Below are positions 3,792 to 62,233 of a stretch of 64,000 bases of DNA, in pieces; position 1 is the first letter of the stretch, and each line of letters opens with the position of its first letter. The stretch is taken from the NCBI GenBank assembly GCA_903835075.1, contig CAILLM010000004.1, forward strand, positions 144,532 through 208,531, given 5' to 3'. Position numbers and translations under genes: made by a program. The notes under the pieces are model-generated. The model saw only the letters and a program-made list of their open reading frames with translations. It did no database searches and was not told the origin of the DNA. The stretch comes from Candidatus Staskawiczbacteria bacterium (GTDB taxonomy: Bacteria; Patescibacteriota; Minisyncoccia; Minisyncoccales; Staskawiczbacteraceae).

Positions 3792-4775
3792 ATGGCATCA
3801 AATTCACGATTTAATGGTTCCAAAGATGATTTATTGCAAGTTTTTAACCTTTATGGGTTGAAAGTTTCAGGTATTCGATGTTTTAAAGATGGAATAATAA
3901 ATACATCTTATTGCCTTGATATAGAAGATGGATCAAAACTAGTGTTAAGAGTATATCAAAACGGTGACAAGAGTAGTGATGCCATTGGAAAAGAGTTGGA
4001 TTTCATGGAAAAAATGAATAATTCCGGCATTCCGGTTCCTTCAGTTATGAATAATGAAAATAGGGGGAAAATGACCATTTTTAGCGACTCTAATGGGAAA
4101 GAATGGCGAGCCATCATTATGACCTTTGCGGATGGGAGACACCTTAAGCCGGATGATCTTGATATTATTCCCGAATTTGCTACTTATCAGGCGAAAATGC
4201 ATTTATGTTCTGCCAAACTCAATAAAAATTCTGATGTGTCAAACTTTAAGGTTATGGTTGATTGGATGGACAAAGAATTTAAGGAGACAAAATCAAAAGG
4301 AATAAGCGAAGAAACATTTATAAAAATAGAAAATATATATACCGAACTAAAACAGGATATAGAATTAAATTACGAAAGTATACTGGAATTACCATTCGGA
4401 GACGTTCACTTGGATTATGATAGCGATAACATTATTGTGAGCGATGGTAAAATAAAGGCCATCTTAGATTTCGATGATATTTCTATGCAACCATTTATTT
4501 TAGATAGCGCAAATTCAATTTGGTGGTGGCTATTTAATAATAAAAAAGAGAAATATAAAGATATATTACAAAGTTATTTTAGCAGTTATAAAACAATAAG
4601 GGAAATTTCGGAAAAAGAATATAAATTATTAGGTTTATTTATGAGAATGAGAAATTTAACTTTAATATGTCTTCTTTATGTAAATATATCCGAAGAAACT
4701 AATTATATGGGAATTAATGAGGGTTTCAATTTGGATCCTTTATTAAAATCATTATATGGATTTTATTCCTTTTAA
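3792..4775 (+). CDS. aminoglycoside/choline-kinase family phosphotransferase (APH-like)
   Basis: 327 aa; catalytic-loop-like VHLDYDSDNIIV (HxDxxxxN) followed by ILDFDD (DFD). Confidence 0.8.
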   Translation: MASNSRFNGSKDDLLQVFNLYGLKVSGIRCFKDGIINTSYCLDIEDGSKLVLRVYQNGDKSSDAIGKELDFMEKMNNSGIPVPSVMNNENRGKMTIFSDSNGKEWRAIIMTFADGRHLKPDDLDIIPEFATYQAKMHLCSAKLNKNSDVSNFKVMVDWMDKEFKETKSKGISEETFIKIENIYTELKQDIELNYESILELPFGDVHLDYDSDNIIVSDGKIKAILDFDDISMQPFILDSANSIWWWLFNNKKEKYKDILQSYFSSYKTIREISEKEYKLLGLFMRMRNLTLICLLYVNISEETNYMGINEGFNLDPLLKSLYGFYSF

Positions 4776-5892
4776 TAAAACTTATGTACCAAGCGAAGCC
4801 AACGATTTAATCGCTGATGTTTTAATGTCCGGATGGATTACTACGGGGCCAAAAACAAAGGAGTTTGAAAAAGAATTTTTAGAAGTTATTGGAAGTAGTA
4901 ATGAGGCAATCGCTGTATCCTCTGGAACAGCTGCCCTACATCTAGCCTATATTGTATCTGGCATAAGGTCTGGAGACGAGGTTATCGTGCCAAGTTTTAC
5001 ATTTTGCTCTACTATAAATATGCTTGTCCATTTGGGCGCTAAGCCAATCTTTTGTGATATATCAGAAAATTCTTTGTGCATAGATCCAAACGATATAAGT
5101 AAAAAGATAACAAGTAAAACGAAGGCTATAGTAGTAGTTCATTATGCAGGATATCCATGCGAAATGGATAAGATTAATAAAATCGCGGAAGAACATAAAT
5201 TAATCGTTATAGAAGATGCCGCACATGCATTTCTTACAAAATATAATGGGAGTTACATAGGTTCAGGGAATAACATCACTTGTTTTAGTTTTTATGCGAC
5301 AAAGAACCTAACAACAGCCGAGGGTGGCATGGTTGTCTGTGCGGACAAGAAAAAGTCAGAAAGGATTAGAATGTTATCTATGCATGGAATTTCTAAAGAT
5401 GGATGGAATAGATATTCTGAAGTAGGAAAATGGAGATATGATGTAATTGAACCAGGCTACAAATATAATATGACTGATGTTCATGCATGTATCGGCCTTT
5501 CTCAATTAAAATATTACAATAAATCTAATTTAAGGAGAGTTGAAATAGCTGCAAAATATAAAGAAATTTTGTCTAGAAATCCATATATCATACTGCCCCC
5601 TGATCCGGTCGATAAAAACAGCAAACATGCATGGCATTTATTCGCGATTAGGGTTAGTGGTAATTCGCCCATTAGTAGGGACAATTTGATTATAAAACTC
5701 AAGGAATTTAATATTGGCACGAGCGTTCATTTTATCCCGAATCATCAGCAAAGCTTTTATAAAGATTCAACAATAATTTTGCCAGTCACAGAAAAAGTCG
5801 GTGATACTATCCTGTCTTTGCCTATGTATGAACTACTAACAGATAAAGAAATTATTTATATATCTGATACTATAAATCAGATTCTAAAATAA
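4756..5892 (+). CDS. DegT/DnrJ/EryC1/StrS-family PLP-dependent sugar aminotransferase
   Basis: 378 aa; SSGTAALHLAY, DAAHAF, and SFYATKNLTTAEGG carrying the PLP lysine; overlaps the upstream gene. Confidence 0.9.
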   Translation: MDFIPFNKTYVPSEANDLIADVLMSGWITTGPKTKEFEKEFLEVIGSSNEAIAVSSGTAALHLAYIVSGIRSGDEVIVPSFTFCSTINMLVHLGAKPIFCDISENSLCIDPNDISKKITSKTKAIVVVHYAGYPCEMDKINKIAEEHKLIVIEDAAHAFLTKYNGSYIGSGNNITCFSFYATKNLTTAEGGMVVCADKKKSERIRMLSMHGISKDGWNRYSEVGKWRYDVIEPGYKYNMTDVHACIGLSQLKYYNKSNLRRVEIAAKYKEILSRNPYIILPPDPVDKNSKHAWHLFAIRVSGNSPISRDNLIIKLKEFNIGTSVHFIPNHQQSFYKDSTIILPVTEKVGDTILSLPMYELLTDKEIIYISDTINQILK

Positions 5893-6878
5893 TGTTTAAA
5901 AAAAGAAAAGAAAAAATATTGATTACCGGCGGTTCTGGCTTTATCGCAACCCATCTGATTAAATATCTGCAAACTTTCGATAAATATGAAATTACTGTTT
6001 TAGATATCGTTCCTCCGAAAACAGAAAATGTAAAATTCATCCAGGCGAGCATTTCAGACCTGTCAAAGATTGAACCAATTTTAAATGACATCGATTATGT
6101 TTTTAATTTTGCCGCGATGATAGGCGTTGATAACTGCGCTAATAACCCGGATGCAGTTATGCAGGTTAATTACGTAGATACTAAAAACCTTTTCGATTTA
6201 TGTGTAAAAAAATGCATAAAAAAGATTATTTTTACTTCCTCCTCGGAAGTATACGGAAATTCAGAAGATATACCATATAAAGAGAACGCTATACTGCAAC
6301 CGATTTCTACTTATGCAAAATGTAAGATGATGATCGAGGGTTATCTGATGGGGATATCCAAGACTACTAAAATAAAAGTTGGAATAGTAAGATTCTTTAA
6401 TGTATATGGTCTTGGTCAGAAAGATGATTTTGTTTCTAGTATTTTCGTAAAAGCTGCTTTGACTAATGAGCCGTTAGTCATATTTGGCGACGGACAGCAA
6501 TCAAGATGTTTTACTTATGTAGACGATGCCGTAAAAGGAGTTTACAGTTTATTTAAATATAATAAATCTCCATACGAAATAGTTAATATTGGTAGTAAAT
6601 TTGAATCTACGATCGAAAATTTAGCAAAAATTGTTTTGAGCTCCATTCCAGAGTCTAAATCAAAAATAGTTTTTAAAAATTATGGTATTGATAACGTTAG
6701 GGAGTCATACCTAGAGATAAAGAGAAGAATACCATTTACTGATAAGGCTAACAGATTACTAGGTTTTGAAGCTGTTACGAGTATAGAGGATGGAGTTAAA
6801 AATATTGCATTTAGTTATGTAAAAGAAATAAATACCCATGATTATTTCGAAGATGGAAGAATATTATCCTCCAATTAA
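5892..6878 (+). CDS. NAD-dependent sugar epimerase/dehydratase (extended SDR)
   Basis: 328 aa; Rossmann motif ITGGSGFIATHL; catalytic YAKCK (YxxxK); start abuts the stop of the upstream gene. Confidence 0.85.
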   Translation: MFKKRKEKILITGGSGFIATHLIKYLQTFDKYEITVLDIVPPKTENVKFIQASISDLSKIEPILNDIDYVFNFAAMIGVDNCANNPDAVMQVNYVDTKNLFDLCVKKCIKKIIFTSSSEVYGNSEDIPYKENAILQPISTYAKCKMMIEGYLMGISKTTKIKVGIVRFFNVYGLGQKDDFVSSIFVKAALTNEPLVIFGDGQQSRCFTYVDDAVKGVYSLFKYNKSPYEIVNIGSKFESTIENLAKIVLSSIPESKSKIVFKNYGIDNVRESYLEIKRRIPFTDKANRLLGFEAVTSIEDGVKNIAFSYVKEINTHDYFEDGRILSSN

Positions 6879-54177: not shown

Positions 54178-54717
54178 ATGAATAAATTTAAAGAAAATGT
54201 ATTATTGCTGATAATGGGTGGGTTAGCTTTTGGATATAGCTATACTCCAACAATGCAGAGTAGGGTGCTGAAAGCGTTTGCCAAAGAATGGAAGAAAATA
54301 AATGGTAAAGATCTTAAAAGGGCGGTAGATTATTTATATAGGTTAAAATATATTGATAAACAAGGTGCGGGGTACGATATTGGTCAGTTGACTATAACCG
54401 AAAGGGGTAGGTTAAAGTCGCTAGATTGCCGTCTTGATAATTTAAAAAGTAAAAAAGATAAGTGGGATGGTAAGTGGCGAATGGTCAGTTTTGATATTCC
54501 AGAAAAATACAAACAAGGAAGGGACGCCCTGCGCAATAAATTGAAAAGTATTGGGTTTAGGGAATTACAGAAAAGCATCTTTATTACACCATATAATTGC
54601 AAAGAAGAGGTGGCACTTTTAGTGGGATTATTTAAATTGGAAAAGTTTGTTCGTTTTGGAATTTTAGAATATATTGATAACGAGGATTATTTTAAAAAAA
54701 TATATAAAATAAGCTAA
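54178..54717 (+). CDS. PaaX-like / Cas2-fold-containing putative transcriptional regulator
   Basis: 179 aa; WDGKWRMVSFDIPEKYKQGRDALRNKLKSIGFRELQKSIFITPYN resembles the PaaX C-terminal pattern. Confidence 0.55.
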   Translation: MNKFKENVLLLIMGGLAFGYSYTPTMQSRVLKAFAKEWKKINGKDLKRAVDYLYRLKYIDKQGAGYDIGQLTITERGRLKSLDCRLDNLKSKKDKWDGKWRMVSFDIPEKYKQGRDALRNKLKSIGFRELQKSIFITPYNCKEEVALLVGLFKLEKFVRFGILEYIDNEDYFKKIYKIS

Positions 54718-54771: not shown

Positions 54772-55413
54772 ATGCAAAGTCCGAATTTTAGTGAAGAAAA
54801 AAAGTTATGGAAAAAAGGTTTTAAATGTATTGCAGGGCTAGATGAAGTGGGGCGCGGACCTTTGGCGGGACCAGTGGTGGCTTGTGCTGTTTTTGTGAAG
54901 CCATATGCAAAAATATTAGTAACAGGAATTAATGATTCAAAAAAACTTTCTGAAAAACAGAGAGAAGTTTTATATAAGAACTTAATTAATCACAAAGATA
55001 TAAAGTGGGAAATTGGAATTGTTTCAGAAAAAGTCATTGATAAAATAAATATATTAGAAGCAACAAAACTGGCAATGAAAAAAGCCGTTAAAAACATGAA
55101 CCCCGATTATTTATTGATTGACGGCAATTTCGGGTTAAATATGAATATTTCTGAAAAATATATTGTTAAAGGCGATCAGAAAGTTTTATCAATTTCTATT
55201 GCCAGCATAATTGCTAAGGTGACACGGGATAGAATTATGGAAAAATTTCATAAAAAATATCCTCAGTATGGGTTTAACAAGCATAAAGGTTATGGGACTG
55301 CATTTCATATGGCAATGATTAAGAAGTTTGGGCCGTGTAAAATTCATAGGGCATCTTTTTACCCGGTTTCTCAATTTAGTGGCTTTAGAGGGGCAACTAT
55401 TGCAAGTTTTTAA
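54772..55413 (+). CDS. rnhB: ribonuclease HII
   Basis: AGLDEVGRGPLAGPVV, LIDGN, KGYGT. Confidence 0.9.
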   Translation: MQSPNFSEEKKLWKKGFKCIAGLDEVGRGPLAGPVVACAVFVKPYAKILVTGINDSKKLSEKQREVLYKNLINHKDIKWEIGIVSEKVIDKINILEATKLAMKKAVKNMNPDYLLIDGNFGLNMNISEKYIVKGDQKVLSISIASIIAKVTRDRIMEKFHKKYPQYGFNKHKGYGTAFHMAMIKKFGPCKIHRASFYPVSQFSGFRGATIASF

Positions 55414-55461
55414 TATTTGTTATACAATAAGAAATAATTAAAAATAATTTATTGAAATCAA

Positions 55462-55710
55462 ATGGCAGTACCAAGACATAGTCATACGAGAGGAAAAGTG
55501 GGCAGAAGCAGAATGCACAAATATATAAAGAATGTGCAATTAAATGTTTGCCCAAAATGCAAAAAACCAATTTTGTCCCATACGGTTTGTTTAAATTGTG
55601 GACATTATAAAGGGACAGAAGTTATAAATGTTTTAGGCAAGCTTACAAAGAAAGACAAGAAAGCAAGAGAAAAAGAAATCAAGGACGTTGAGAAATCCGA
55701 TACAAAATAA
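55462..55710 (+). CDS. rpmF: 50S ribosomal protein L32 with a Lys-rich C-terminal tail
   Basis: MAVPRHSHTRGKVGRSR, CPKC...CLNCG. Confidence 0.9.
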   Translation: MAVPRHSHTRGKVGRSRMHKYIKNVQLNVCPKCKKPILSHTVCLNCGHYKGTEVINVLGKLTKKDKKAREKEIKDVEKSDTK

Positions 55711-55723
55711 ATAAATTTAAATT

Positions 55724-56167
55724 ATGGCAAGTCGTCATTTATCGCGTTCAATTGTTTTGCAATCACTTTATGAGTGGGATTTTTATGACAAAAAGCCTAA
55801 TTTGAAAGAAATTACTGAAAGAAATATTAAGGATTTTGGGCCTGGGCTAGAAGAACTGGATTTTATTTGGAATTTAATTGATGGCGTTGAAAAACATTTA
55901 GTTGAGCTTGATAAAATAATTGAAAAAGCAGCGCCAGAGTGGCCAATTGCTCAAATTGCAATGATTGATAGAAATGTCTTAAGAATTGGTTTGTTGGAAT
56001 TGCTGTATTCAAATAAAGAAGAAGTACCACCAAAAGTTGCCATAAATGAAGCAATAGAATTGGCAAAAACATTTTCAGGGACAACTTCTGGAAAATTTAT
56101 TAATGGAGTTTTGGGAACAGTTTACAAACAATTAGACCCGCCTGCACAGGCAGGAGAAAAAGTATAG
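55724..56167 (+). CDS. nusB: transcription antitermination factor NusB
   Basis: [14 protein letters not shown]..., [22 protein letters not shown]. Confidence 0.85.
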
Positions 56168-56860
56168 ATGATGGATTTCGAAATTTTAGAAAAAAAATTA
56201 GGAGTAGAATTCAAGGATAAGAATCTTTTAAAACATGCTTTCACGCACAGGTCTTATTTAAATGAAAACCCAGAATTAAAATTAGAGCATAATGAAAGAT
56301 TAGAATTTTTAGGAGATGCGGTTATGGAATTAATTGTGACAGAACATCTTTATAAAGAATATCCAGAAAAAGCAGAAGGAGACTTAACTAATTGGAGAGC
56401 TGCCCTAGTTAACGCAAAAATGTTAACCAGCGTTGCAAAAGAATTAGAGTTTAATGATTTTCTTTTGCTTTCTAAGGGTGAGTCGAAGGAAATGGGCAAA
56501 GCAAGAGATTATATTTTAGCTAATTCCTTTGAAGCATTTTTAGGGGCATATTACTTAGATTCTGGTTTTGATGCATGTGATGAATTTATAAAAAAGAATT
56601 TATTAAAAAATTTAGCAGAAATAATAAGAGACGGTTCGTATAAAGATGCAAAGTCAAAATTTCAGGAAGAGGCGCAAGAAAGAGTTTCTATTACGCCAAA
56701 TTATAAAGTAATCAGTGAGTCAGGTCCAGACCACGAAAAAAGTTTTGTGGTGGGAGTATACTTAAATGATGAGCTTGTTGCCGAAGGTAAGGGTTTGTCA
56801 AAACGTGAAGCAGAATCAGCAGCAGCCGAGCTGGCACTTGGTGTTAAAAAATGGAATTAA
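56168..56860 (+). CDS. rnc: ribonuclease III
   Basis: NERLEFLGDAV signature; C-terminal dsRBD ...GKGLSKREAESAAA. Confidence 0.95.
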   Translation: MMDFEILEKKLGVEFKDKNLLKHAFTHRSYLNENPELKLEHNERLEFLGDAVMELIVTEHLYKEYPEKAEGDLTNWRAALVNAKMLTSVAKELEFNDFLLLSKGESKEMGKARDYILANSFEAFLGAYYLDSGFDACDEFIKKNLLKNLAEIIRDGSYKDAKSKFQEEAQERVSITPNYKVISESGPDHEKSFVVGVYLNDELVAEGKGLSKREAESAAAELALGVKKWN

Positions 56861-56890
56861 TAAAAATTTAAAAAATAATTTTAAACAAAA

Positions 56891-57334
56891 ATGTTAACTA
56901 TTAGACTAACAAGAAAAGGAAAAAAGAATCAGCCATTTTTTAGAGTGGTTGTAATTGATAAAAGAAGTTCAACAAGAGGTGGAAGATCTGTTGAAGATTT
57001 GGGTTATGTTGACCCATTGAAAAAAAGAAAGAGCCTTAATGCAGAAAGAATAAAATATTGGCTTTCAAAAGGAGCACAAGCTTCAGATACAATGCACAAC
57101 CTTTTAGTTGCAGAAAAAATTATTGAAGCAGATAAAGTTCACGTTTCTAAATTGAGCAAAAAAGCAAAAGAAAAAATGAAAGCAACAGCTGAAGCAAAAG
57201 TTGCAGCAGAAGAGACAGCAAAAGCTAAGGCACCCGCCTCCGCCGAAGGCTCCGTCGAGGCAAAGGAAAAAGAAGAAGTTATACCAGAAGAGGCAGCACC
57301 AGAAGCTACCGAAGAGCCACCCGCCTCCGCATAA
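56891..57334 (+). CDS. rpsP: 30S ribosomal protein S16 with an Ala/Lys/Glu-rich C-terminal tail
   Basis: MLTIRLTRKGKKNQPFFRVVV. Confidence 0.95.
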   Translation: MLTIRLTRKGKKNQPFFRVVVIDKRSSTRGGRSVEDLGYVDPLKKRKSLNAERIKYWLSKGAQASDTMHNLLVAEKIIEADKVHVSKLSKKAKEKMKATAEAKVAAEETAKAKAPASAEGSVEAKEKEEVIPEEAAPEATEEPPASA

Positions 57335-57375
57335 ATCTACCGCGAGGCAACGACGGAATAAGATTTTATAAAAAC

Positions 57376-57401
57376 AAAAATCCGTTGAAAGGCGGATTTT
57401 T
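57376..57401 (+). terminator. terminator-like hairpin after rpsP
   Basis: AAAAATCCGttgaaaggCGGATTTTT. Confidence 0.55.
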
Positions 57402-57429
57402 AGATATATAGGGAAGAATGGAATGTCTA

Positions 57430-57458
57430 TTGACAAGGTTCTTTAAAAGTGCTATAAT
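57430..57458 (+). promoter_or_regulatory. perfect TTGACA-17-TATAAT promoter
   Basis: TTGACA 57430-57435; TATAAT 57453-57458. Confidence 0.7.
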
Positions 57459-57464
57459 TAGAAT

Positions 57465-57608
57465 ATAGAGGGCGTTTAGGAGATTTCTCTTTGTTGACCG
57501 ATTTTGTGGCTCCGGCTGCGAAACTCGAGATATAAAGTTCGGCAATGGAAAATTTTTATAATTTTTCGCAAGTATCGGACAGGAGAGATCTCCCAAGCGC
57601 CCTTTTCT
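57465..57608 (+). ncRNA. candidate ~145-nt rod-like RNA (sRNA or terminating leader)
   Basis: GGGCGTTTAGGAGATTTCTCT (57470-) pairs with AGGAGAGATCTCCCAAGCGCCC (-57602): about 20 bp with 1 mismatch, several G-U pairs valid only for the plus strand. The stem extends through TTGACCGAT/ATCGGACAG and GCGAAA/TTTCGC. A TTTTCT tract follows. Confidence 0.45.
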
Positions 57609-57661
57609 ATTCCAATATTCCGCGGAATAACGGAATAGCAGATGGTAGCACTTTAAAAGAG

Positions 57662-57714
57662 GTGGTTGCAGACATAAGTTACTAAAATCATTAGTATTTT
57701 CTGTCTGTGACTAC
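57662..57714 (+). promoter_or_regulatory. conserved 5'-UTR stem-loop, copy 1
   Basis: GTGGTTGCAGACA...TGTCTGTGACTAC, a 13-bp stem including G-U pairs. Confidence 0.6.
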
Positions 57715-57750
57715 TAAACAACAATAACAACGAACCGAAAGGAAAAAGAC

Positions 57751-58131
57751 ATGACACTGAAAAGAGCACAGGAAATCCTAACAAAAATCAACTGTTGGGA
57801 ATTGGATGGCAAGGGGGACTTTGCTGAAATCCAAACCGACCAAGAAGGTTGGCAGGCGTTCGCCGATGAAATTGGGATTACCCTAGATGAGCTTGACGAA
57901 TTCGTCACTCTCCATCTGATGGGTTGTCTTGATTCCGATGATGATTGGCCTGGTGACGACGAGGATGACTTCGAGCCGGCGATGCCTGAATTCGATGCGG
58001 AGGCATGGGAAGAGGAGAGCGGCACAAGTTGCCAAGTTTCCGATTCCAGGTCGTACAGCCCGCTGTCCACGGGCGATTGGTTTTCCGATGCCAACCAAGC
58101 CGCTTGTGACAGGGGTGGCGACGATGACTAG
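57751..58131 (+). CDS. very acidic 126-aa protein, paralog 1
   Basis: MTLKRAQEILTKINCWELDG... with long D/E runs; AAAGGAAAAAGAC precedes the ATG; GC-rich. Confidence 0.65.
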   Translation: MTLKRAQEILTKINCWELDGKGDFAEIQTDQEGWQAFADEIGITLDELDEFVTLHLMGCLDSDDDWPGDDEDDFEPAMPEFDAEAWEEESGTSCQVSDSRSYSPLSTGDWFSDANQAACDRGGDDD

Positions 58132-58152
58132 GACTCCCGCTAATCGTGGCTC

Positions 58153-58203
58153 GCAAGTGCCTATAAACTTGCAATGGACCTGCGGTTTTACCAAGGGTCC
58201 TTT
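58153..58203 (+). terminator. 3'-UTR hairpin (loop GCCTATAA) plus an intrinsic terminator
   Basis: GCAAGTgcctataaACTTGC, then GGACCtgcggttttaccaaGGGTCC followed by TTT. Confidence 0.6.
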
Positions 58204-58216
58204 AAATTGTTTAATA

Positions 58217-58245
58217 TTGACATTAATATTTTAAAGTGATATAAT
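58217..58245 (+). promoter_or_regulatory. perfect TTGACA-17-TATAAT promoter
   Basis: TTGACA 58217-58222; TATAAT 58240-58245. Confidence 0.7.
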
Positions 58246-58282
58246 CAAAACGAAAATTACAGAGGTTAGTTCTTTCAAAAAA

Positions 58283-58335
58283 GTGGTTGCAGGCAAAAGA
58301 TACAGATATTCTCGGTATTTTCTGTCTGCAACTAC
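58283..58335 (+). promoter_or_regulatory. conserved 5'-UTR stem-loop, copy 2
   Basis: GTGGTTGCAGGCA...TGTCTGCAACTAC. Differences from copy 1 keep pairing (T-G/G-T become T-A/G-C; A-T becomes G-T). Confidence 0.6.
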
Positions 58336-58365
58336 AAACAAAAAACTGAATTGAAAGGAAAAGAC

Positions 58366-58743
58366 ATGACACTTAAGAGAGCAAGAGAAATAGCCGATAA
58401 GGTCTTCGACTGGGAACAGAAAGCTGATGAAGGCACTTTTGGAGATGTTGTCGCCGGTGACAACTATCGGAACCTGTCAGTATTCACTGATATTCCAGAG
58501 CAGGAACTCAGGGAGTTTGAGGAGTACTGGGGATCCAACCGTTACTGTCGGGATGTCGAAGAGGATGCCGCTTGCGACCATAACCCGCAACGCTCGGTAA
58601 ACGAGGACCTTCTAACGGAGCTCGCCGACGGCGACGACGACGATGAAGCCGATTATGAGGCACTTCGCTATGCTGAGATGGAGCGCATCCTCGAAGAGGA
58701 CGGACTCCCCCTTCTCAACTCCTGGGACTATCGCTGGGCTTGA
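58366..58743 (+). CDS. very acidic 125-aa protein, paralog 2
   Basis: MTLKRAREIADKVFDWEQK...; shares the N-terminal ~55-aa pattern with paralog 1. ATG 58366 is preferred over the TTG at 58351. Confidence 0.65.
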   Translation: MTLKRAREIADKVFDWEQKADEGTFGDVVAGDNYRNLSVFTDIPEQELREFEEYWGSNRYCRDVEEDAACDHNPQRSVNEDLLTELADGDDDDEADYEALRYAEMERILEEDGLPLLNSWDYRWA

Positions 58744-58753
58744 ATTCGTGGCT

Positions 58754-58808
58754 ACAACGTGCCAATAAACGTTGTAAATGGACCCCTGGTAACTCTTGGG
58801 TCCTTTTT
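58754..58808 (+). terminator. 3'-UTR hairpin (loop TGCCAATAAA) plus an intrinsic terminator
   Basis: ACAACGtgccaataaaCGTTGT, then GGACCCctggtaactcttGGGTCC followed by TTTTT. Confidence 0.65.
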
Positions 58809-58850
58809 ATTGCATAATATTGACTCCTCACCATTTAATATGGTGAAGAG

Positions 58851-58879
58851 TTGACACCTTTTGCCAAAAGGAGTAAAAT
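58851..58879 (+). promoter_or_regulatory. TTGACA-17-TAAAAT promoter for the KH-trmD genes
   Basis: TTGACA 58851-58856; TAAAAT 58874-58879. Confidence 0.6.
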
Positions 58880-58901
58880 TAAATAAATTAAAGGTCGCAG
58901 G

Positions 58902-59249
58902 ATGAATATTAGTTTAAATGAAAGTACCATGACACAAGAAAACGATAAAGAGTTTCTTGAGTACATTGTTAAGGAATTAGTTGATAATCCTAAAGACGTC
59001 AAAGTAGAAAGAAAAGTTGACGAAATGGGAGTATTGCTTTCATTGAAAGTAAACCCAGCAGATATGGGTCAAATCATTGGAAGAGAAGGATCAACAGCCA
59101 AAGCAATCAGAAACTTGGTCCGAATTGTCGGATTAAAGAATCACGCCAGAGTGAACCTCAAAATTGAGGAACCAGAAGGCGGACGTGCTCCAAGACCAGA
59201 AGCAAAACAAGAAGTCACAGCAGACGACTTAGATAATATTTCTTTGTAA
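58902..59249 (+). CDS. KH-domain RNA-binding protein (YlqC-like) with a C-terminal extension
   Basis: ADMGQIIGREGSTAKAIRNLV (GxxG KH motif); usual position between rpsP and trmD. Confidence 0.85.
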   Translation: MNISLNESTMTQENDKEFLEYIVKELVDNPKDVKVERKVDEMGVLLSLKVNPADMGQIIGREGSTAKAIRNLVRIVGLKNHARVNLKIEEPEGGRAPRPEAKQEVTADDLDNISL

Positions 59250-59263
59250 TTTAAAGAAAAACA

Positions 59264-59288
59264 AAAAACGCATTCGTGCGTTTTTTGT
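59264..59288 (+). terminator. terminator-like hairpin
   Basis: AAAAAACGCAttcgTGCGTTTTTTG. Confidence 0.65.
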
Positions 59289-59310
59289 TTTTCTGTGTTA
59301 TAATCGTTAC

Positions 59311-60009
59311 ATGATTAAATTTGATGTAATTACAATTTTTCCAGAAATGTTTAGTTCTTATTTAAAAGAGAGCTTGATTTCGCGTGCACAGCAAAAAAAG
59401 TTTATAAAAATAAATTTACATAATTTAAGAAAGTGGACAACTGATAATCATAAAACAGTTGATGGTAGGCCATTTGGAGGTGGATTGGGAATGGTTTTAA
59501 AAGTGGAACCAATTTATAAAGCTGTGAAGTTTATAAAGTCAAAAGTTAAAGGTAAAAAGTCTAAGGTTATACTTTTCACGCCACGTGGACAAAAATTTAA
59601 TCAAAAGTTAGCCAACAAATTATCTAAGCTAAATCAAATTATTTTTATTTGTGGGCGGTATGAAGGCGTTGATGAAAGAGTTGGAGAAAAAATTGCTGAC
59701 ATGGAAATTTCAATTGGTGAGTATGACTTAATGGGTGGGGAATTGCCAGCAATGGTTGCCATTGAAACTATTTCAAGATTAGTGCCGGGAGTTATTGGCA
59801 AGGAACAATTGTTAAAAGAAAGGGTTTCAAAAACAGGAGGATTTTTAGAATATGCACAATACACCCGCCCTGAAATATTCAGGGCGAGGCTCGCCAAAGG
59901 CGGCAAGGCCAAGGTTGAAAGTTGGCGTGTGCCCGAGGTATTATTGTCGGGGAATCATAAAAAAATAGACGAGTGGAAAAAATTACACGGCAAGGTTATT
60001 GAAGAATAA
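59311..60009 (+). CDS. trmD: tRNA (guanine37-N1)-methyltransferase
   Basis: FDVITIFPEMF, DGRPFGGG, CGRYEGVDERV, VLLSGNH. Confidence 0.95.
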   Translation: MIKFDVITIFPEMFSSYLKESLISRAQQKKFIKINLHNLRKWTTDNHKTVDGRPFGGGLGMVLKVEPIYKAVKFIKSKVKGKKSKVILFTPRGQKFNQKLANKLSKLNQIIFICGRYEGVDERVGEKIADMEISIGEYDLMGGELPAMVAIETISRLVPGVIGKEQLLKERVSKTGGFLEYAQYTRPEIFRARLAKGGKAKVESWRVPEVLLSGNHKKIDEWKKLHGKVIEE

Positions 60010-60037
60010 TAATTTTTGTGATATAAGTATTTATATT

Positions 60038-60120
60038 GGGCGTGTGGCTGAGCAGCAAAGGCAACAGACTGTAAATCTGTCGGGTTCTACCCTTCGCAGG
60101 TGCAAGTCCTGCCGCGCCCA
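60038..60120 (+). tRNA. tRNA-Tyr (GTA), class II with a long variable arm, no encoded CCA
   Basis: Hand-folded. Acceptor GGGCGTG/CGCGCCC, anticodon arm ACAGA-CTGTAAA-TCTGT, T arm GCAGG-TGCAAGT-CCTGC. Confidence 0.85.
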
Positions 60121-60135
60121 CTTTGCAAAGCAAGG

Positions 60136-60158
60136 TGTCCCGAGCTTGTCGAAGGGCA
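60136..60158 (-). repeat. intergenic copy of the GC-rich CCCTTCGAC..CTC.GG repeat
   Basis: Reverse complement reads CCCTTCGACAAGCTCGGGACAC. Confidence 0.6.
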
Positions 60159-60165
60159 CAAACCC

Positions 60166-60238
60166 GCCGATGTAGCTCAGTTAGCAGAGCATTTCCATGG
60201 TAAGGAAAAGGTCCGCAGTGCAAATCTGCGCATCGGCT
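60166..60238 (+). tRNA. tRNA-Thr (GGT), no encoded CCA
   Basis: Hand-folded. GCCGATG-TA-GCTC-AGTTAGCA-GAGC-A-TTTCC-ATGGTAA-GGAAA-AGGTC-CGCAG-TGCAAAT-CTGCG-CATCGGC-T. Confidence 0.85.
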
Positions 60239-60343
60239 CAGAAATATAGAAATTTCTAAAGAAATTTATATAATTACGTCGCTCGGTCGTAATGAAAATA
60301 AATCTTCATTCCTCCCTCGCTAGTAATTATTAAAAACAAACTT

Positions 60344-60505
60344 ATGGCAGTTAAAAAACCGTTTTTAAAAATTCAATGTACTGTTTGCAAAACTACAAAC
60401 TATTTTGCAAAAAAAACAAAAGCAATGGCCGAGAAAAAACTCGAGCTTAAAAAATATTGCTCAAAATGCAGAAAAACTACACCTCATAAAGAAACTAAGA
60501 AATAG
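60344..60505 (+). CDS. rpmG: 50S ribosomal protein L33
   Basis: Not in the ORF track (53 aa). MAVKKPFLKIQCTVCKTTNYFAKKTKAMAEKKLELKKYCSKCRKTTPHKETKK, with two CxxC pairs. Confidence 0.85.
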   Translation: MAVKKPFLKIQCTVCKTTNYFAKKTKAMAEKKLELKKYCSKCRKTTPHKETKK

Positions 60506-60511
60506 AATTAA

Positions 60512-60536
60512 GAGCCCCGCAATGCGGGGTTTTTTG
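60512..60536 (+). terminator. intrinsic terminator
   Basis: GAGCCCCGCaatGCGGGGTTTTTTG. Confidence 0.8.
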
Positions 60537-60625
60537 TTAGAAAAAATTTTGACAAAAGAAAAAGATTATTTTAAGGTTAGTTATTCAATAAGACCTTTTA
60601 CAACTAAATATGGAAAGACAAAATT

Positions 60626-62233
60626 ATGATACACACATTGGGAAATGTTGATAAGCAAGTTCTTTTGGAAATTGCCAGTGAGAAACAGATTCGTAAAACA
60701 AGCGAACTTTTTTTGTTATTTTCTTTGGGTAGTCAATTTGACCATTTAATTAAGCAGGCCGTAGATAGGCTGGGGGTGTTTTGTTTGGTGGCAGATCCAA
60801 ACAAAATTACAGCAGAAGACGTGAGGAAAATTAAACCTAAGGGAATAATTGTTTCTGGCGGACCAGCCTCTGTTTATGAAGGCACCTTGTCATTTGACTG
60901 TAAAATCTTTGACTTGGGAATACCTGTGATGGGTATTTGTTTGGGCTTTCAACTGTGGGCTCAGCACATTGGGTGTAGTGTTGAGAAATCTCCAAAAAGA
61001 GAATTTGGTACACACCATCTTAGCATATTTGAAAATACAATTCTTTTTAGTGGGTGTCACAGTGGTTGCAATGTTTTAATGAGTCACGGTGATAATGTTT
61101 TGAAAACCACTAACTCTAAAATTAGGGTTTTAGCATATACTGATAATTGTCCAATAGCTGCTGGTAATTACAAGCATCTTTGGGGCGTGCAATTCCACCC
61201 AGAAGTTACAGAAACAACAATTGGCCCCCAAATTTTCTGGAGTTTTTGTTTTTTGATTTGTAAAGCAAAAAACAAATATCCGGCCAAAGATGTGGCAAGG
61301 GAGAAAATATTGTCCCTGCGAGAAACAATTGGTAACAAGAATGTTTTGCTAGCACTTTCAGGTGGCTCGGACTCCTCAACAGTTGCTTATTTGTTGCGTG
61401 ATGCTTTAATTCACGGGCAATATGAAACTACGGACCAGTTGAGGGGAGTATATATTCGCGGAATTGACAGACCCGATGACGAAGATCATGTTCGCAAATA
61501 TTTTGACTGGATTGATTTAAAAATTGTTGATGCTACGGATCGCTTTTTGAAAGCCTTGCGTGGCAAAAAAACAATGCCTGAAAAACGGTTGGCAATGAGG
61601 GGAGTCTATAAGGCTGTGCTTGAAAAAGAGGCCATAGAATTTGGTGCTAATTTTATTGCGCAAGGAACGCTTTTTACTGATATTTCAGAAAGTGGTGGGG
61701 GGTATGAGGGTGAAAAAAAGGCTCAAATAAAACTTCACCATAATGTGGAGTTGGGATTTTCATTCCCAGAGCTTACTCCGCTTGACGACTGTGTGAAAGA
61801 CACTGGGCGTAGCATTGGTAGAGAAATTGGTGTTCCCGAAGATTTACTTGTTCGGCAACCTTTTCCTGGCCCTGGTTTGATTGTTAGGATTGAAGGAGAA
61901 ATTACTGGTGACAAGTTGAAAATTGCTCGTCAAGTGGACGACATTTATATTCATGAATTGCGAAACGCGGGTCTTTATGAAGGCGTTTGGCAAGCAGGCG
62001 CGGTAATTACGCAATCTGTTACAACTTGCACCAAAGGCGACGGCGCTGCTAGTGGAATTGTTGTTGCTTTGTGGGCAGTTTGGAGTGTAAATGGTTTTAC
62101 TGCTCAAGCTGCAGAATTGCCTTGGGATTTCATAAAACTTGTTTCACAAAGAATTACCAATAATGTGCCCGAAGTTGGTGCTGTGGTTTACAGAACTTCT
62201 GACAAACCACCTGCCACCATAGAGTGGGGTTAA
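60626..62233 (+). CDS. guaA: GMP synthase (glutamine-hydrolysing)
   Basis: GATase GICLGFQ...VQFHPE; ATP-PPase LALSGGSDSS; C-terminal ...KPPATIEWG. Confidence 0.9.
   Translation: MIHTLGNVDKQVLLEIASEKQIRKTSELFLLFSLGSQFDHLIKQAVDRLGVFCLVADPNKITAEDVRKIKPKGIIVSGGPASVYEGTLSFDCKIFDLGIPVMGICLGFQLWAQHIGCSVEKSPKREFGTHHLSIFENTILFSGCHSGCNVLMSHGDNVLKTTNSKIRVLAYTDNCPIAAGNYKHLWGVQFHPEVTETTIGPQIFWSFCFLICKAKNKYPAKDVAREKILSLRETIGNKNVLLALSGGSDSSTVAYLLRDALIHGQYETTDQLRGVYIRGIDRPDDEDHVRKYFDWIDLKIVDATDRFLKALRGKKTMPEKRLAMRGVYKAVLEKEAIEFGANFIAQGTLFTDISESGGGYEGEKKAQIKLHHNVELGFSFPELTPLDDCVKDTGRSIGREIGVPEDLLVRQPFPGPGLIVRIEGEITGDKLKIARQVDDIYIHELRNAGLYEGVWQAGAVITQSVTTCTKGDGAASGIVVALWAVWSVNGFTAQAAELPWDFIKLVSQRITNNVPEVGAVVYRTSDKPPATIEWG

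Follow-up and report, generated by a model that had tools for sequence, protein, structure and literature searches.

What is transcribed from the consensus promoter that lies between rpsP and khpA in this Candidatus Staskawiczbacteria genome: a structured RNA in its own right and, if so, one of a known kind, or the leader of the acidic gene behind it? To our knowledge, almost nothing is known of the regulatory RNAs of the CPR (Patescibacteria), uncultivated bacteria with very small genomes. Throughout, the window is the whole 64-kb stretch of DNA analysed. A first reading of its sequence (hereafter the sequence-only reading) had proposed that the promoter drives a rod-like RNA resembling 6S or a protein-sponge RNA or, alternatively, a terminating leader of the first acidic gene. 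We find that the locus very probably encodes a conserved structured RNA on the + strand, that the 6S analogy is to be dropped and that the leader idea is only half right.

A consensus promoter and a folded sequence between rpsP and khpA

The window comes from a bacterium of low GC content (~31%), and the nearest relatives of its S16, RNase III, KhpA and TrmD proteins are found in Candidatus Staskawiczbacteria (Parcubacteria/Patescibacteria, CPR). The gene order is rnhB, rpmF, nusB, rnc (RNase III, 56168-56860), rpsP (56891-57334) and a terminator hairpin, then the promoter, the folded RNA and two tandem acidic modules and, past a third promoter, khpA, trmD, two tRNAs and rpmG. The features of the spacer are:

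57375-57402, + strand: rpsP terminator hairpin (AAAAAUCCG...CGGAUUUUU), which parts rpsP from the RNA gene
57430-57458, + strand: sigma-70-type promoter (-35 TTGACA 57430-57435, TG 57451-57452, -10 TATAAT 57453-57458)
57467-57608, + strand: structured RNA, named P1-box RNA, type A (covariance model, full length, 119.6 bits, E = 1e-26)
57602-57611, + strand: weak U-tract (CUUUUCUAUU) that immediately follows the GC-rich base of helix P1, candidate partial intrinsic terminator
57607-57638, + strand: hairpin with the palindrome TATTCCGCGGAATA (57616-57629), window-specific and not kept by relatives
57662-58131, + strand: cargo module 1, with a UTR hairpin (57662-57714) and a promoterless acidic orphan ORF (57751-58131)
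58217-58743, + strand: cargo module 2, a tandem paralogue that lacks the RNA, with a 12/12 promoter (58217-58245), a UTR hairpin (58283-58335) and an acidic ORF (58366-58743)
58823-58851, + strand: hairpin remnant touching the khpA promoter
58851-58879, + strand: khpA promoter (11/12)
58929-59249, + strand: khpA

The RNA had been described as lying inside the rpsP-trmD operon, and its position is indeed there, but rpsP has its own terminator hairpin and khpA-trmD its own promoter. An equivalent of the rpsP terminator hairpin is also found after rpsP in four related loci (L009, L010, L144 and L042).

The promoter at 57430-57458 matches the consensus at 12 of 12 positions, with a 17-nt spacer and a TG-extended -10, and both the perfect TTGACA-17-TATAAT arrangement and its spacing to the folded RNA are as had been described. 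Four 12/12 sites occur on the two strands of the window, two of them in this locus. From promoter geometry only, transcription is predicted to start at ~57465-57467. As for the other end, the sequence-only reading had the rod finish in a U-tract; the tract is present but weak (CUUUUCUAUU), and many homologs do not keep it. Termination would take place at CUUUUCUAUU; note that a closing helix spanning ~100 nt is unusual for an intrinsic terminator.

The palindrome reported after the RNA is also present, but at 57616-57629, 2 nt away from the position given for it. It is not found in the closest relatives, and by simple calculation a 64-kb sequence should contain about four perfect 14-nt palindromes by chance. 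The hairpin that contains it, 57607-57638, stands where the similarity to locus L010 stops, which is the left edge of the cargo. Another repeat, a 15-nt inverted repeat with 93% complementarity (57440-57454 / 57646-57660), consists of the promoter spacer and an inverted copy of it, and flanks the whole RNA gene. An invertible-promoter switch based on this repeat was set aside: the repeat is window-specific and an invertase is absent nearby.

The RNA in the window folds as a three-way junction

The + strand of 57464-57612 folds with -57.8 kcal/mol (z = -6.58), an energy that none of 200 shuffles equals, as compared to -45.4 kcal/mol (z = -5.2) for the - strand. The covariance model described below scores the window at 119.6 bits on the + strand vs 33.9 bits on the - strand. 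The two ends form a terminal helix (57468-57491 with 57581-57604) of 24 positions with a single A.C mismatch (57478/57594), in which several G.U pairs are possible on the + strand only. Two features read from the letters, namely ends that pair with one mismatch and G-U pairs that work for the plus strand only, are thus both recovered, and the folding energy is better than that of the shuffled controls.

The continuous rod with two further helices that had been drawn above this terminal helix is replaced by a different architecture: in the fold supported by covariation, P1 meets a PA-CG-P2 arm and a P3 arm at a three-way junction, P3 being the extra hairpin of type A copies that turns the RNA into a junction. 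An unbranched rod is real in some relatives, not in the window copy. The structural elements, on which RNAalifold and manual reading agree, are:

57468-57491, + strand: P1 5' strand, with the conserved box GGCGUUUAGGAGAUUUCU at 57471-57488
57581-57604, + strand: P1 3' strand, with the conserved box AGAGAUCUCCCAAGCGCC at 57584-57601
57490-57494, + strand: PA 5' strand UUUGU, paired with AUAAA (57532-57536) and sharing nucleotides with the two uppermost P1 pairs
57499-57527, + strand: apical arm, with C57499-G57527 and G57500-C57526 nearly invariant
57502-57510 with 57515-57523, + strand: P2, 9 bp, closed by a UCCG tetraloop (UNCG-type, 57511-57514)
57537-57580, + strand: P3 arm, with a lower stem of GUUCG (57537-57541) and CGGAC (57576-57580)

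The upper stem of P3 is formed by 57547-57554 with 57560-57567 around a UUUAU loop. Between the CG/CG pairs of the apical arm and P2, A57501.C57524 is a wobble-type pair, seen as A.C or G.U in relatives. The P1-box RNA contains no conserved ORF, and a reading of the element as a small ORF is out, since several copies are without any ATG-initiated ORF.

Homologous copies occupy the same spacer in related genomes

With the RNA sequence as query, nhmmer was run on 80 rpsP loci of GTDB genomes, and the RNA was found downstream of rpsP and on the same strand in 12 of them. A covariance model was made from ten of these sequences; on rescoring, the building sequences reached 110-139 bits and shorter relatives 48-59 bits, and extra local copies were recovered. 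A metagenome collection was then scanned, blind to gene context, with an 18-nt pattern from the P1 3' strand box, which after re-scoring with the model gave 13 further copies in 11 metagenome loci. The total is about 28 copies in 23 loci, from Staskawiczbacteria genomes and metagenomes, with one to three local copies per locus; full-length and type B copies score about 48-139 bits, and type C and miniature forms less. The eight strain contigs of the window are 100% identical to it over 57340-58900 and therefore carry no covariation information.

All full-length and near-full copies lie in the interval from rpsP to khpA-trmD and have the orientation of these genes. Each of the 11 metagenome loci found without regard to context adjoins khpA-trmD and, where the sequence extends far enough upstream, the RNA is preceded by rpsP. 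At every locus the - strand scores far below the + strand. The P1-box pattern has no match in the viral contigs scanned. One further match at 36 bits, in a Yanofskybacteria locus (L052), is a perfect 21-bp hairpin with a U-tract ~4 kb from rpsP, and was rejected as a terminator with chance similarity. From this distribution, the P1-box RNA appears as a conserved resident of the rpsP-khpA spacer in one Staskawiczbacteria subclade. It is absent from the rpsP-khpA site in several close relatives (L020, L023 and L037, with gaps of ~220 nt), so that in those genomes it is either dispensable or located elsewhere. Its restriction to a small clade and its dispensability in close relatives make a universal housekeeping role unlikely.

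The promoter accompanies the RNA. The module TATTGACAAGG..TGNTATAAT also precedes it in relatives, and a site of at least 10/12 lies within 90 nt upstream in 21 of the 28 copies (12/12 in 15 of these 21); in the other seven a promoter is not recognisable within 90 nt.

The copies fall into length classes. Type B relatives miss P3 and are true rods, their two helical arms being separated by an A/U-rich internal loop of ~7x7. In type C copies the 5' side bears a GC-rich hairpin, and miniature forms consist of the lower P1 box only; two of the latter have a 12/12 promoter on one side and an orphan ORF on the other (L026, 5638-5698; L144, about 1624-1666). In L134 (4550-4720), a self-contained ~170-nt rod with the closing helix CCCUGAGUUAAGAAAUG / CAUUUUUUAACUCAGGG is inserted in the P3 arm, with the remaining fold intact, which hints at mobile hairpin insertions in these genomes.

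Every helix shows compensatory changes

Covariation was analysed in two alignments. The first (A4) joins the ten model-building sequences with three type B copies (13 in total): 93.4% of cells are paired and 22 of 49 pairs are changed on both sides. None of 500 shuffles did as well on four of the five measures, against 61 of 500 for pair types, and the best slid control gave 56%. The second (A5) holds 13 sequences outside model building, with 93.9% of cells paired and both-side changes at 25 of 49 pairs; here no shuffle out of 500 did as well on any of the five measures, and the best slid control gave 52%.

The check on homologous loci that had been called for thus finds compensatory changes, with every helix contributing. 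P1 is 95-97% paired across homologs, with both-side changes at 5-7 pairs. PA covaries in relatives (CUAU/AUAG, UUCAU/AUGAG and CUUCAU/AUGAAG), two of the four pairs of helix 2 being changed on both sides. P2 is 92% paired with 6 of 11 pairs changed on both sides, the CG/CG pairs of the apical arm are invariant or nearly so, and the P3 helices (4 and 5) are 89-96% paired with 7-11 such pairs. Overall, these data give very high confidence that this is a real and conserved structured RNA of the + strand, and the promoter-driven RNA gene of the sequence-only reading is in this respect genuine.

The lower part of P1 is almost fixed in sequence (GGCGUUUAGGNGAUUUCU with AGAAAUCNCCCAAGCGCC), whereas the arms vary freely. 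Within P1, 23 of 26 sequences keep the wobble U57475.G57597; the position 57478/57594, A.C in the window, is A.C or G-C in relatives; and 57481/57591, A-U in the window, corresponds to A.C or C.A in most relatives. Such a conserved geometry of wobble and A.C pairs is meaningful for RNA only, and suggests that something recognises the P1 helix.

A small RNA gene whose closing helix may be recognised by a protein

Our favoured reading, held tentatively and at slightly under an even chance, is that of a small structured RNA gene of an undescribed family, in which P1 would be the recognition or processing site of an RNA-binding protein and whose product would serve either as a free small RNA or as a leader. 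Transcription would start from the consensus promoter a few bases before the 24-bp helix that joins the ends, and the irregular conserved P1 helix would be the site recognised by the protein. The most plausible candidate would be a double-strand-specific factor, RNase III, which is encoded two genes upstream; this candidate role is proposed because of helix length, conserved irregularities and gene proximity only, and the rnc-rpsP adjacency is general in these bacteria. With P1 as a putative recognition site, the RNA would serve for protein binding or processing: once released it would persist as a stable small RNA, and as part of a longer transcript it would determine the stability or processing of the mRNA that it heads. 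In the window, the weak terminator CUUUUCUAUU would yield mostly a ~140-nt RNA, and read-through would be the sole visible source of transcription for acidic ORF 1.

Stand-alone RNA or leader of orphan genes

What follows the RNA differs between copies, and the 3' flank sequence correlates with it:

L121a, L042a, L019, L144, L136 and L014: next promoter within ~20 nt, U-rich flank in five of the six; stand-alone small RNA
L010: next promoter 95 nt away, flank CUUUUAAAUUUU; stand-alone
Ten copies including L025, L015, L016 and L155: terminator-free, UUGAAAU-like flank, with a ribosome-binding site and an orphan ORF following within 22-70 nt; 5' leader

The flank of L014 after P1 is UUAAACA, and the next promoter begins 7 nt past P1. 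U-tracts are found in only about half of the copies, and the flank in the window is intermediate (CUUUUCUAUU). Copies in relatives are thus predicted to be of two sorts, stand-alone small RNAs with a terminator and 5' leaders to unrelated orphan genes; the window copy probably combines the two.

The alternative of a cis-acting 5' leader or attenuator only, whose promoter would serve the downstream genes (here acidic ORF 1) and whose structure would tune termination, stability or processing of the mRNA with no function as a free RNA, is unlikely but deserves serious weight. Acidic ORF 1 has no promoter of its own, as had been noted: none lies between it and the RNA. A Shine-Dalgarno sequence and ATG lie within 22-70 nt, with no terminator between, in at least ten copies; miniature forms are known as leaders only, and the same promoter module drives other types of leaders in relatives without the P1-box RNA. 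On the other hand, at least seven copies lead nothing (L010, L136, L019, L121a, L144, L042a and L014), with the next promoter within ~20 nt (95 nt in L010) and, in most, a U-tract. Moreover, PA, P2 and P3 covary far more than a stabilising 5' hairpin would require, the genes that follow are unrelated orphans that share no function, and a search for an antiterminator gave no conserved alternative pairing beyond the 2-3-bp overlap of P1 and PA.

For acidic gene 1 itself, the proposal of a terminating leader is half retained. The gene is promoterless and relatives do use the RNA as the 5' leader of orphan genes; but the RNA is conserved without the acidic gene and stands alone before the khpA promoter in several genomes, so that it is not there to control acidic gene 1. 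In the 22 other loci, cargo is either absent or unrelated. The acidic genes are lineage-specific cargo, on which the P1-box RNA does not depend.

Comparison with known RNA families

In Rfam 15, the best match of the isolated RNA is a plant miRNA-precursor model, with 19 bits vs a threshold of 180. The whole window searched at the gathering threshold, and the locus and the isolated RNA searched at E<=10, returned only tRNAs and meaningless miRNA-hairpin matches. The 6S and SRP models have no match at E<=10 in 55000-61000, nor in 57455-57625 alone with lax filters. The Rfam scan suggested by the sequence-only reading, for 6S and others, hence places the RNA in no family at E<=10. The P1-box RNA is likewise not described in the literature searched on 6S or structured RNAs of CPR or Patescibacteria, and appears to represent a family not described before and new to the databases searched.

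With 6S RNA (Rfam RF00013 and relatives), the P1-box RNA shares the nature of a promoter-driven small RNA whose ends join in a long closing helix with small irregularities and, in its type B relatives, an elongated overall shape. It differs in its patchy distribution, its use as an mRNA leader and its shorter length, and conservation lies in the closing helix and not, as in 6S, in the bubble. A divergent 6S-like RNA, which would mimic an open promoter and sequester the RNA polymerase holoenzyme, would account for the strong promoter, the long irregular helix that pairs the ends and the ~7x7 A/U-rich loop between the two arms of type B, and a canonical 6S was not seen in the 64 kb searched. We nevertheless consider it very unlikely. 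No 6S model matches at E<=10 even on the isolated 171 nt; in type A the would-be bubble has 0-2 unpaired nt on the 5' side, where P1 enters PA, and the flanking PA covaries, the ~7x7 loop being found in type B only; the length is 120-145 nt vs the usual 150-200 nt; the conserved sequence is in the closing stem; and close relatives lack the RNA at the site, while others use it as an mRNA leader. The resemblance to 6S or protein-sponge RNAs is abandoned on these grounds: no Rfam match, no large central bubble, conservation in the closing helix and absence in close relatives.

Bacterial SRP (4.5S) RNA was rejected, with no Rfam match and an apical UCCG loop on a 9-bp variable stem. SRP domain IV has a GNRA tetraloop and conserved symmetric and asymmetric loops (..GGAA..AGCA..), and these defining apical motifs are missing in the P1-box RNA. 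A riboswitch was set aside as well, given the high stability of the 24-bp P1, the lack of a conserved partner for switching and the absence of a functional relation among the downstream genes.

The E. coli rpsO-pnp intergenic leader and the R1.1-type sites of phage T7 are leader hairpins processed by RNase III. Like them, the P1-box RNA has a long irregular helix in which non-Watson-Crick positions are conserved, follows a ribosomal-protein gene and opens the next transcript; in relatives it leads downstream ORFs. Unlike them, it has covarying side arms, a near-invariant helix and a stand-alone form, and there is no sequence similarity; cleavage is putative here.

TIGR-Tas systems with stem-loop tigRNAs are known from Staskawiczbacteria, and are recognised by an adjacent tas (Nop-domain) gene and by tandem units with two hypervariable 8-12-nt spacers, a box C (CCA) and a box D (UG) (PMC12045711; 10.64898/2026.09.09.750476). 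The P1-box RNA resembles these stem-loop tigRNAs in its lineage, in a terminal stem around single-stranded segments, in the inner hairpin seen in CPR clades and in CUU at the 3' base of the stem. It differs in being a single unit, with no array and no CCA / UG box C/D anchors. We ruled out a tigRNA: tas is absent from 40.3 kb to the window end, and the would-be spacer positions are conserved or paired. The genes in 40.3-63.6 kb are housekeeping genes (gatB, miaA, miaB-like, glmS, thrS, dnaE, rnhB, rpmF, nusB, rnc, rpsP, khpA, trmD and guaA). A retron msr-msd RNA was rejected because a reverse transcriptase is missing downstream, where orphan ORFs, khpA and trmD are found instead, and a bridge RNA because the partner gene is missing.

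A DNA-level element

Correia/NEMIS and ERIC are miniature inverted-repeat elements with tens to hundreds of dispersed copies, the transcripts of which fold into hairpins. The P1-box RNA has in common with them conserved terminal inverted repeats of ~20-25 nt, a variable interior and discrete length classes, and they too are co-transcribed with neighbouring genes and can adjoin promoters. It differs by its single syntenic spacer and orientation, its strand-specific wobbles and the compensatory changes in its interior. Of two traits of such elements, conserved terminal repeats around a variable interior are found here (the P1 box, in types A, B, C and miniature); many dispersed copies are not, with one copy in the 64-kb window, 11 of 11 context-blind loci syntenic and no viral matches.

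The alternative of a DNA element of the MITE or Correia type, or of a hairpin recombination site marking a cargo hotspot, with the RNA fold as a by-product, draws on these repeats and length classes, on the one to three local copies per locus, on the hypervariability of the spacer with its turnover of unrelated high-GC orphan genes and on the rod inserted inside the RNA in L134. It is highly improbable in our view: the copy is single in 64 kb, all copies share locus and orientation and viral contigs are without matches; strand-specific wobbles and conserved wobble and A.C positions are meaningless in duplex DNA; interior helices are changed on both sides; the distance to the promoter is fixed and short; and from 40.3 kb to the window end transposase, integrase, reverse transcriptase and Nop/Tas genes are all absent. 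The small RNA gene with a putative recognition helix is the reading that we tentatively favour.

Cargo and other RNAs of the rpsP-khpA spacer

The cargo of the window extends over ~57626-58831, by comparison with L010, and comprises two modules of ~600 nt each. Their acidic ORFs (125-126 aa) have homologs only in their own cluster, none outside the species, and belong to no Pfam family. With a GC content of 52-57% vs ~31% for the surroundings, the modules look like recently acquired or rapidly evolving cargo. Cargo ORFs of different genomes are unrelated, often membrane or acidic proteins and of higher GC; a Pfam search of ten of them gave zero families.

The 5'-UTR hairpin of both modules (57662-57714 and 58283-58335) has the form GGUUGYAGNCA...UGNCURYAACC, with G.U pairs valid on the + strand only, and is shared with the closest relative L009 (5721-5768), where it precedes a different (membrane) ORF. 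A loose regular-expression search for it over all loci returned mostly noise, true matches being those of the window and L009 only.

A second rod-like RNA, absent from Rfam, was observed in the same spacer of other loci (L011 5994-6097, L017 about 5806-5990, L111, L024 and L121), with variants in L033 and L044. Its closing helix is of ~20 bp (CCYUUGUUUCAAAUCAUUAG / UUAGUGAUUUGAAACAAGGG); in L011 the fold has z = -7.4 and is preceded by its own 12/12 promoter, and in some loci this RNA stands directly behind the P1-box RNA. The promoter module, TATTGACAAGG-N-TGNTATAAT with a AAATATATAGGGTAAA-like initial sequence (57428-57466 and 58215-58250 in the window), recurs before varied leaders and orphan genes, and is found throughout the rpsP-khpA spacer of Staskawiczbacteria in many loci.

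A wider and distinctly speculative idea, to which we give little probability, is that the rpsP-khpA spacer is an expression hotspot, in which a shared strong promoter module and interchangeable structured RNAs launch orphan genes, with the stand-alone P1-box RNA acting as a regulator decoy. The interchangeable RNAs would then be the P1-box RNA, the second rod-like RNA (CCUUUUUUCAAAUCAUUAG / UAGUGGUUUGAAAAAAGGG closing helix) and others, and the orphan genes launched would be of high GC and rapidly exchanged. A dedicated RNA-binding regulator would dock at the P1-box helix, and the decoy copy would titrate it off the leader-bearing mRNAs, as CsrB does with CsrA. A spacer between two core genes with quick turnover of orphan genes under a shared promoter module may help to explain how reduced genomes acquire and express genes. 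With its strong promoter, good covariation, lack of any Rfam match and defined conserved helix, the P1-box RNA would offer a concrete entry point to RNA regulation in the CPR.

Further observations at the locus

A long, Ala/Glu/Lys/Pro-rich C-terminal extension of S16 (57200-57334), locally of ~50% GC, varies in length among relatives. Just upstream of rnhB, a 179-aa protein (54178-54717) contains a PaaX central (Cas2-like) domain. In the strain contigs, substitutions relative to the window are found only in tight clusters, within rnc (56392-56656) and at the khpA-trmD junction (59059-59328), which look like recombination patches or a chimeric strain assembly.

On the khpA side, the hairpin at the promoter abuts the -35 (CUCUUCACC...GGUGAAGAG-TTGACA), and only its base is left in the window; longer versions occupy the same position in L010 (~5755-5835) and L035 (~3900-3990). 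The khpA leader carries the motif AAAGGUCGCAGRAUGA (58890-58907 in the window), which is conserved in nearly all Staskawiczbacteria loci examined.
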